This document shows, one piece after another, positions 8,933 to 22,240 of a DNA stretch of 64,000 nt (the first letter of the stretch is position 1; each line of letters starts with the position of its first letter). The notes below the pieces were generated by a model. It did no database searches. It was not told the DNA's origin and was given only the letters and a program-made list of their open reading frames with translations. Source of the DNA: Promethearchaeia archaeon. Its GTDB lineage: Archaea > Asgardarchaeota > Lokiarchaeia > Sigyniarchaeales > SOKP01. The position numbers were made by a program, and so were the translations under genes. Location of the stretch: contig JAHQWG010000028.1 in the NCBI GenBank assembly GCA_029856045.1, positions 224,001 through 288,000 on the forward strand, in the 5' to 3' direction.

Positions 8933-9033
8933 ATTAAATCATATTTAATATAAATTTAATTAATTCTTTTCATTTCAATTTGATTTTTTTTTTAATTTTT
9001 TATTTTTATTTAATTAAATCACATTGTTTTTTA

Positions 9034-10245
9034 CTAGATTGTTCCATCAGTTAATTTTTTCTTCCATTCTTTAAATGATTCACGTTTTGGTATCTTAAAT
9101 TCAATATCATCAAGATTATCAGCTATGGGTAACCGACCATAGGTATGTATAGCCGCAACTGCAGCATGAATATGGTCAGAAGGAGCGTCAGCTGGAATAT
9201 TATCTAAGAAAAAAGATAAACTATGATCTCGGCCAAGAATATCGATATAATGTTTGATAGTATCAACGATTTTTTCTACTGGACCATCTCGGAGTAACCG
9301 AGCATTAACACCAGCAGTAATAGTCACATTAATACTTTCTTCCCGAAGCTTGGCTGTATAATCTCGGACTGGTTCTAAAGGGTAGTCTTGCCAGGGACCA
9401 TAAAGTAGGAATAACATTGGCGCGCCTGTACATGCAATTCCAACATCAAAACATCCATGCAAAATTTCAGCATCAAACTTATCTAGTTGTTCTTCGCTGT
9501 AGGTACCACTGCTGCACATTATCATAACTCCCAATTTTTTGCATTTCTCCCTCAACCGCTCTGTATAAGGTACTACCCATTCTTTCATATCCTTAACTGA
9601 TAGGTTTGGAACAGACGCCCAAGCATCAGGAGCAAAAGCCATGAGGATATCAGTATAATCATTTTGTACCTTAATGTATGGTACTAATACATCATCTATA
9701 ATAAATGTAAATAGCTCATGGGCAAAATCTGGGCGCTTTTTCATATCCTTGATTAATGCTGGATAACTTCGCATTCCTACTGCCATGCTAAAGGGAGCAC
9801 AGAACGATCCTGCTACCCCTTCATAGTCTAGGCTAAGATTAATACACTCTAAAGCATAAGGTAACCGCCCATCATTATACCAGTCCACTTCCTTTTTCTT
9901 GAGTTTATGTAAGTCCTCAAGATTTTTAATTAGAGGGTCTCGAAAATCTATGGTTGGCATTGAATTTTCACCATAGATCATTTTACCCCCCATTGCCTCT
10001 ATTTCAAGATTGTAAACATCAGTGATAGGCGTACAAGAATCTAGCTGGTAATAACCTGATACATCAGCTGTGGATTCAACAAACACCTTAGCATCATGAT
10101 AGAATTTCTTGGCTGGTTCTTCAGTCAATGTCATTATGTGGTCGGGCATTTGAGCAATAACTTGAATCCAAGGCTTTTCTGGATCTATAATAAGACCAGA
10201 TAATCCCTTACTTCCTGCACCCTTTTTGGATTTTTCTTTCCCCAT
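9034..10245 (-). CDS. UroD-fold corrinoid-dependent methyltransferase (copy 2)
   Basis: Paralog of 5302..6510 with the same motifs. Confidence 0.8.
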   Translation of the reverse strand: MGKEKSKKGAGSKGLSGLIIDPEKPWIQVIAQMPDHIMTLTEEPAKKFYHDAKVFVESTADVSGYYQLDSCTPITDVYNLEIEAMGGKMIYGENSMPTIDFRDPLIKNLEDLHKLKKKEVDWYNDGRLPYALECINLSLDYEGVAGSFCAPFSMAVGMRSYPALIKDMKKRPDFAHELFTFIIDDVLVPYIKVQNDYTDILMAFAPDAWASVPNLSVKDMKEWVVPYTERLREKCKKLGVMIMCSSGTYSEEQLDKFDAEILHGCFDVGIACTGAPMLFLLYGPWQDYPLEPVRDYTAKLREESINVTITAGVNARLLRDGPVEKIVDTIKHYIDILGRDHSLSFFLDNIPADAPSDHIHAAVAAIHTYGRLPIADNLDDIEFKIPKRESFKEWKKKLTDGTI

Positions 10246-21882: not shown

Positions 21883-21980
21883 GCCTCAGTTGCTTAGCCT
21901 GGTAGAGCGTTGCCTTGGTATCAAATCCGTAGGTTTAAACAGAAAGGCAAAGGTCGCGGGTCCGACTCCCGCCTGAGGCT
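21883..21980 (+). tRNA. tRNA-Thr(GGT) with a canonical 37/38 intron (about 21921-21944)
   Basis: Acceptor GCCTCAG/CTGAGGC, anticodon stem TTGCC/GGCAA around TT-GGT-A, T-stem GCGGG/CCCGC. The intron forms the hairpin aaatc-cgta-ggttt. Confidence 0.9.
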
Positions 21981-21994
21981 CAATATTCGAAAAA

Positions 21995-22162
21995 GTCGGT
22001 GTGGCTAAGCTTGGTTACTAAAGCGCTAAAAAGCGTTAGCGCCAACAAGCGCCAGACTCATAATCTCTTATGAAGAATTGGGTCAGAAAATAAGACATCT
22101 GGAGATCGGGGGCTCAAAAAAAAAAGCACTTCGCTTTTATTGAGTAGATCCCCCCACCGACA
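21995..22162 (+). tRNA. tRNA-Met(CAT), probably elongator, with three introns (D-arm about 22018-22046, anticodon 22063-22096, T-loop 22118-22147)
   Basis: Acceptor GTCGGTG/CACCGAC plus A, anticodon stem CCAGA/TCTGG with CT-CAT-A, T-stem GGGGG/CCCCC. Each insertion fits a relaxed bulge-helix-bulge. Confidence 0.85.
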
Positions 22163-22240
22163 CTCTTTCTTTCTTTTAAATTAATTAATATTTTCGCCAA
22201 CATAGATATCTTTTAATAATGTGGTATCAATTTTTTTGTT

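Follow-up and report, generated by a model that had tools for sequence, protein, structure and literature searches.

A three-intron tRNA gene of a Loki-type Asgard archaeon, predicted to encode elongator tRNA-Met(CAU)

A 168-nt gene on the plus strand at positions 21995-22162 of the window (the whole analyzed stretch of 64,000 nucleotides) very probably functions in a Loki-type Asgard archaeon as an elongator tRNA-Met(CAU) gene, the transcript of which would lose three introns by splicing. The gene begins with GTCGGTG and ends with CACCGAC followed by the discriminator A, and these termini form a perfect 7-bp acceptor stem. Excision of 22018-22046 (29 nt), 22063-22096 (34 nt), and 22118-22147 (30 nt), at positions 21/22, 37/38, and 58/59 of the Sprinzl numbering, leaves 75 nt. 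The first-pass annotation had proposed that a normal cloverleaf appears after removal of these three segments, and this is borne out: the spliced sequence is called tRNA-Met(cat) by ARAGORN and folds into a class I cloverleaf with stems of 7, 4, 5, and 5 bp, a variable loop of 5 nt, the CAU anticodon, and discriminator A73, the D stem containing an A.A mismatch at 13:22. The features of the locus are as follows.

21883..21980, plus strand: tRNA-Thr(GGT) with one anticodon-loop intron (Rfam RF00005, 49.4 bits), 14 nt upstream of tRNA-Met
21995..22017, plus strand: exon 1; acceptor 5' strand, positions 8-9, D-stem 5' strand, D-loop through A21
22018..22046, plus strand: intron 1; 29 nt, D-loop 21/22, hBH-type motif
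22047..22062, plus strand: exon 2; D-stem 3' strand, G26, anticodon-stem 5' strand CCAGA, loop CTCATA with the CAT anticodon
22063..22096, plus strand: intron 2; 34 nt, canonical 37/38, relaxed BHB
22097..22117, plus strand: exon 3; A38, anticodon-stem 3' strand TCTGG, variable loop AGATC, T-stem 5' strand GGGGG, T-loop CTCAA
22118..22147, plus strand: intron 3; 30 nt, T-loop 58/59, strict hBHBh' motif
22148..22162, plus strand: exon 4; T-loop AT, T-stem 3' strand CCCCC, acceptor 3' strand CACCGAC, discriminator A, no encoded CCA
22163..22178, plus strand: T-rich tract CTCTTTCTTTCTTTT directly 3' of the tRNA-Met gene, read from the sequence

The two tRNA genes, of which the upstream one has its GGT anticodon assigned from the Rfam alignment, are probably co-transcribed, and the Thr-Met tandem is also present in relatives. 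The T-rich tract CTCTTTCTTTCTTTT could plausibly serve as an archaeal oligo-T terminator. The T-loop of the tRNA-Met (22113-22117 joined to 22148-22149) reads CTCAAAT, with C54 in place of the near-universal U54; among the 13 distinct sequences of its orthologs, 12 likewise lack U54 and have C or A instead, and the neighboring tRNA-Thr and tRNA-Ile(GAT) have TCC at positions 54-56.

Standard scanners had been expected to overlook this gene, and two of them do. ARAGORN reports no tRNAs in the whole window, and the only match of the Rfam tRNA model there is the neighboring tRNA-Thr. When run with its intron option on the whole genome, ARAGORN makes 35 calls and again misses the tRNA-Met gene; several of these calls are wrong, the neighboring Thr gene being reported as Ser(aga) and another call containing a 560-nt 'intron'. 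The Rfam tRNA model finds only 25 tRNAs in the whole genome, the completeness of which is estimated at 100%, and it misses both three-intron tRNA-Met genes, those of this genome (G000) and of G002, one of four other genomes of the same genus (G001-G004; five in total). The gene is thus a practical test case, since two common finders miss it and the tRNA sets of such genomes look incomplete.

The fold z-score of the 168-nt RNA is -3.9 relative to 200 dinucleotide shuffles. In a genome-wide cloverleaf scan that allowed introns in the loops and required exons of at least 50% G+C (the genome has 29.4%), the tRNA-Met locus tied for the best score. Many long, high-scoring parses with three 'introns' in AT-rich DNA were rejected, all of them being lost under the exon G+C filter. 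The scans of the genome also revealed further intron-bearing tRNAs, at least nine with D-arm introns (17-34 nt) and four with T-loop introns; within these limited scans, tRNA-Met was the only three-intron gene found.

We considered an intron to have a BHB motif if it showed a 4-bp central helix, two 3-nt bulges on opposite strands with the cut sites, as well as one or more outer helices (classes hBHBh', hBH, and HBh'). Both the T-loop and the D-loop introns show this arrangement with all four central pairs. The helices TGGT/GCCA and GCTC/GAGT named in the first-pass annotation are present and in BHB register, each flanked by 3-nt bulges that contain the predicted cut sites, and the internal hairpins that it described in these two introns were also found. 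In the T-loop intron, the central helix GCTC (gene positions 118-121)/GAGT (148-151) is flanked by AAA and AGA as bulges, the outer helix has 4 bp, and the long inner hairpin takes the form A-run/AGC ... GCT/T-run (scores: central 4, outer 4, inner 2). The central helix of the D-loop intron, TGGT (18-21)/GCCA (47-50), is bordered by TAC and ACA as its bulges, and the outer helix measures 3 bp (central 4, outer 3, inner 0), with no inner helix in register; this intron has its own 7-bp hairpin, GCGCTAA/TTAGCGC. The canonical intron forms three of four central pairs, C34 being opposite A, and its 5-bp outer helix is the anticodon stem. In the structure favored by RNAfold, the anticodon loop instead pairs with the invariant UGGGUC sequence of the canonical intron. 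The conformer with all three BHB motifs has a predicted energy of -43.2 kcal/mol versus -54.0 kcal/mol for the predicted ground state, that is, it is about 11 kcal/mol less stable, and the three motifs should be regarded as possible folds rather than as the predicted dominant fold.

The identity of the tRNA was assessed by comparison with the other candidates carrying the CAT anticodon. In archaeal initiator tRNAs, the first pair is A1:U72 and the anticodon stem has three G:C pairs at its base. Both characters, A1:U72 and GGG/CCC in the anticodon stem, are found in a separate gene with a 21-nt intron (C27:220561-220656), whereas the tRNA at 21995-22162 has G1:C72 and the anticodon stem CCAGA/TCTGG and therefore is not the initiator. 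Two scans of the genome, which allowed introns anywhere in the loop, revealed no third CAT anticodon arm in addition to these two, within an assembly that is a MAG of 55 contigs, from which a further copy could be missing, and for a search that passes over introns inside the anticodon stem. The gene is thus the sole elongator tRNA-Met gene found in the assembly. The first-pass annotation had named an intact elongator Met gene elsewhere, together with lack of a spliced product, as evidence that would point to a pseudogene; the only other CAT tRNA is the initiator.

A tRNA with the CAT anticodon could also be tRNA-Ile2(CAU), in which C34 is converted to agmatidine so that AUA is read, the elongator Met gene then lying elsewhere. 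The CAT triplet alone cannot separate Met from Ile2, and over 17 nt the D-arm of the gene shows 94% identity with its tRNA-Ile(GAT) counterpart. However, TiaS_FLD scores below the cut-off in this genome and TiaS is found in none of the 41 genomes of the order, whereas all four archaeal controls score. In addition, AUA is covered within the genus by a tRNA-Ile(TAT), a gene with two introns in G004 (L020:1494-1652), the last 29 nt of which are present at a contig edge of this genome (C1:2-30). The acceptor stem of the orthologs, GCCGGTG, is unlike the GCGCCCG of tRNA-Ile(GAT) and has the form of uninterrupted genes (e.g., GCCGGGG) that ARAGORN calls tRNA-Met, a call that rests on CAT and cannot itself tell Met from Ile2. 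We take GCC-type acceptor stems to be a mark of archaeal Met. A BLAST search of this genome with tRNA-Ile(GAT) for an Ile2 gene returned nothing. The Ile2 assignment is thus very improbable; since TiaS was not found, the genus has a tRNA-Ile(TAT), and the initiator is the one other CAT tRNA detected, the tRNA at 21995-22162 is very probably Met and not Ile2. With no TiaS found in 41 genomes and a tRNA-Ile(TAT) in the genus, it appears that AUA is decoded here as in eukaryotes, through a UAU anticodon and not through agmatidine-CAU. No paper retrieved in a literature search describes AUA decoding in Asgard archaea.

When 40 related genomes were searched at the DNA level, 17 of them each yielded one tRNA-Met ortholog; 15 of these orthologs (all of the same family) could be parsed, giving 13 distinct sequences. 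None of the 17 checked pairs of the acceptor, anticodon, and T stems is broken in any of these 13 sequences, and compensatory double changes were observed at six pairs (2:71, 3:70, 5:68, 6:67, 49:65, and 50:64). Orthologs with the canonical intron only are scored at 57-61 bits by Rfam, and one two-intron ortholog at 46 bits. In G002, a nearly identical three-intron gene is kept.

These comparisons bear on the possibility that the locus is a decaying pseudogene, a former tRNA-Met that acquired insertions and is no longer processed to a working tRNA. The blindness of standard finders to the gene, the BHB conformer not being the predicted ground state, and the unusual C54 could be cited in its favor. 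On the other hand, no stem has lost its integrity and the family shows co-variation in the stems, each insertion lies at a BHB-capable site and its removal restores the ortholog sequence, the three-intron form is retained in G002, and no other elongator Met gene was found. The C54 argument is countered by C or A at this position in nearly all distinct orthologs, including those that Rfam scores at 57-61 bits. Decay of the gene is therefore extremely improbable.

An exact search with the uninterrupted anticodon arm matched 58 environmental contigs. The parsable matches are uninterrupted tRNA-Met genes that agree with the predicted product at up to 62 of its 75 positions, and the remaining contigs have the same anticodon arm with inserts elsewhere in the gene. 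The interpretation of these contigs as spliced cDNA was rejected, and we regard them as genomic sequences from other organisms. For the spliced T-loop junction, metagenome contigs gave no exact matches.

There is hardly any probability that only some of the inserts are excised, for example, that the D-loop insert is kept as an enlarged D-loop: the D-loop motif is structurally the weakest, given its empty inner register and competing hairpin, but it belongs to the published hBH class with full central pairing, both bulges, and the outer helix, and cutting there yields GGTTA|AAGC, which matches the GGTTA|TAGC of intron-free orthologs at the same place. A retained insert would give a 47-nt D region, which the tertiary structure of tRNA would not accommodate. 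What may be said for such retention is that tRNAscan-SE often keeps D-arm inserts in the 'mature' tRNA (bioRxiv 10.64898/2026.10.13.758758).

Complete removal of all three introns is the reading that we prefer, and the splicing machinery encoded in the genome is consistent with it. Two EndA genes were identified, with PF01974 matches of 103 and 69 bits; both are on the minus strand, alpha on contig C15 at about 85505-86098 and beta on contig C14 at about 9006-9617. The best match of EndA alpha (197 aa) is the catalytic subunit of Aeropyrum pernix, 3p1z_B (E = 1.8e-38 over 174 residues), with which the H(S/A)PF (His) and SVRK (Lys) motifs align. The loop INKPRLEYY of alpha aligns without gaps with VEKPRGADF of A. 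pernix, KPR being shared. The Lys of this KPR loop is presumably the loop Lys that Hirata 2011 reportedly found to be functional. EndA beta (203 aa) has Pro at the position of the catalytic His in the alignment to 1a79, and because of this replacement it is predicted to be the structural subunit. The EndA of this genome is thus of a predicted (alpha-beta)2 type with the L1, or Crenarchaea-specific, loop. The anticipated need for a heteromeric, broad-specificity endonuclease agrees with this gene content, a predicted catalytic alpha with the Crenarchaea-type loop and a His-less beta. The (alpha-beta)2 EndA with an L1 loop, together with multi-intron tRNAs, has been described in Asgard archaea (Kaneta 2018, PMC5829648).

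The following pathway may be proposed. Transcription, probably jointly with tRNA-Thr(GGU), would produce a precursor with three intervening sequences, each of which would form a BHB with its flanking exons, strict in the T-loop, of the hBH class in the D-loop, and relaxed at the canonical position. The (alpha-beta)2 endonuclease would cut within the two 3-nt bulges, its alpha loop providing broad specificity as in the crenarchaeal enzymes, and an RNA ligase would join the four exons into the 75-nt tRNA. Reading of any internal methionine codon would then require that one RNA pass through three cut-and-join events in succession, and a broad-specificity endonuclease would therefore be indispensable.

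The three introns differ in their distribution among the orthologs. The canonical intron is present in all 15, and by this pattern of presence and absence it is old. Nine of the 15 orthologs carry an intron in the D-arm, but these D-arm introns are unrelated in sequence and occupy at least two positions. The 29-nt D-loop intron is shared with G001, G002, and G004, and G003 has an 18-nt D-loop intron that looks related by eye; the other genera have either unrelated D-arm introns or none, and judging from this distribution the D-loop intron is genus-specific. The T-loop intron is found in G000 and G002 and is exactly absent from G001, G003, and G004, the uninterrupted T-loops of which read CTCGAAT or ATCGAAG. 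This distribution, with two carriers among the five genomes known here from the genus, suggests that it is recent, and most likely it was copied from a similar T-loop intron of another tRNA gene.

Similar T-loop introns of 28-30 nt are indeed located at the same position in five tRNAs of the genome, namely Met, Arg(GCG), Arg(TCT), Trp(CCA), and Lys(CTT). The loci in addition to tRNA-Met are as follows.

C15 ~155040-155190, minus strand: tRNA-Arg(GCG) with a T-loop intron of the family
C27:109920-110055, plus strand: tRNA-Arg(TCT) with a T-loop intron of the family
C47:64259-64390, minus strand: tRNA-Trp with a T-loop intron of the family
C27:339151-339253, minus strand: tRNA-Lys(CTT) with a T-loop intron of the family

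Introns of this family share one design, an A-run, a YTTC-tipped hairpin, a T-run, and then TGARTA, and the family motif occurs in this genome in T-loops only. The Met and Arg(GCG) introns are identical at 24 of 30 positions (80%), and the mean pairwise alignment score of the family is 10.5 versus -4.5 +/- 1.1 for shuffles. A search with the strict motif finds it in G000-G003 of the genus and in a single further genus, but not in G004, which is 100% complete. The T-loop introns of the Met orthologs L012 and L017, from two other genera, have the same GC-NNTTC-GC tip. Two signatures of a transposed family are thus observed, related introns across isotypes in one genome and presence versus exact absence among close relatives, and the simplest reading of these sequences is that the T-loop intron was recently gained by copying between tRNA genes, as has been proposed for Thermoproteales.

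Intron families shared between tRNA types are almost lacking in the focal Asgard lineages of a recent survey, where they account for 1.5% of introns (Goswami 2026, bioRxiv 10.64898/2026.10.13.758758). By contrast, one T-loop family spans five tRNA types here; a signal of copied introns was not what that survey of other Asgard lineages found when it asked how introns arrive. The exact presence and absence among close relatives, combined with 80% identity to the intron of another tRNA, is the most useful by-product of the present analysis.

Two of the orthologs deserve a separate description. In the ortholog of L012 (G015; minus strand, ~1369-1662), which has a T-loop intron, the acceptor 5' strand and the D-arm do not lie within 140 nt upstream of the anticodon stem, which suggests either a very long D-arm intron or a split gene. 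The ortholog of L017 (G008; 1478-1644) has a 61-nt insert in the anticodon loop, possibly representing two introns, and a 32-nt T-loop intron; a T-loop intron of the same design is present in the tRNA upstream of it.

The canonical intron contains a conserved element. Eight of its columns, GGGTCAGA at 22080-22087, are invariant in the 13 orthologs, while the remainder of the intron varies, and GGGUCAGA is unchanged in at least 11 genera. GGGTCAGA nearly duplicates the 5' strand of the anticodon stem and could pair either with the 3' strand of this stem or with nucleotides 30-35, RNAfold choosing the latter. The rest of the genome contains no meaningful recurrence of the motif AATTGGGTCAGA. That GGGUCAGA is a functional RNA element rather than a passenger, acting as a splicing switch or providing a job for the excised intron, is a tentative and rather unlikely proposal. 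As a switch, it would alternate between pairing with the stem 3' strand (UCUGG) and with the anticodon-loop nucleotides 30-35, which might set the order of the three splicing events or keep the precursor cleavable by the endonuclease; alternatively, the excised intron might have a role of its own. A role of the canonical intron as a box C/D guide was considered and rejected, as conservation does not extend to its C-like and D-like words (AUGAAGA here aligns with AUAAAGA in G002, G004, and G001).

Triple-intron tRNAs had been regarded in the first-pass annotation as a specialty of Thermoproteales, a view that is outdated, since multi-intron tRNAs of Asgard archaea were published in 2018, 2024, and 2026. 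Multi-intron Asgard tRNAs and the two-subunit endonuclease have thus been known since 2018. In some Asgard lineages 92-95% of tRNA genes contain introns (Valentin-Alvarado 2024, PMC11291895), and up to five intervening sequences per Asgard tRNA gene have been reported (Goswami 2026 preprint, bioRxiv 10.64898/2026.10.13.758758). The present gene resembles those described in these two studies and in PMC5829648 in belonging to the same phylum and in having several short BHB introns per gene. The intron positions (D-arm, canonical, and T-arm), the escape of D-arm introns from standard tools, and the two-subunit EndA are likewise common to both. Unlike the published surveys, which are centered on Atabeyarchaeia, Freyr-, and Jordiarchaeaceae, the tRNA-Met gene analyzed here belongs to a Loki-type family, and the word 'Loki' is absent from the main text of the 2026 preprint (bioRxiv 10.64898/2026.10.13.758758). 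The gene therefore shows the reach of tRNA gene fragmentation in Loki-type relatives of eukaryotes; its status as the sole copy, the clean gain of the T-loop intron within the genus, and the conserved intron element add a little to its interest.

Among the systems outside Asgard archaea, the closest parallels noted are as follows. Thermoproteales, as reported in Sugahara 2008 and Fujishima 2010 according to later papers that cite them, have up to three BHB introns per tRNA at non-canonical positions, depend on a heterotetrameric EndA with the Crenarchaea-specific loop, and have related introns in different tRNA genes. The present case differs in the phylum, in the 29% G+C genome, and in the A/T-rich introns of stereotyped design (A-run, hairpin, T-run). 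The (alpha-beta)2 EndA of A. pernix (PDB 3P1Z, 3AJV) likewise has the KPR loop and the His/Lys motifs in alpha and a second, non-catalytic paralog, whereas the putative beta subunit found here resembles crenarchaeal beta less in sequence than it does the enzymes of M. kandleri and M. jannaschii. The T-loop introns of ARMAN-2 and other DPANN (PMC3239211) are also short, BHB-type, and in need of a broad-specificity endonuclease; they are located at 59/60 and are associated with an epsilon2 or other type of EndA, whereas the intron described here is at 58/59 and the predicted enzyme is (alpha-beta)2.

Finally, the genome contains a tRNA-Ala-like gene of 137 nt at C27:177866-178002, which carries inserts and an apparent internal repeat of AAGAGGTCA; the G+C-rich stretch around it is taken to be an rRNA operon spacer.
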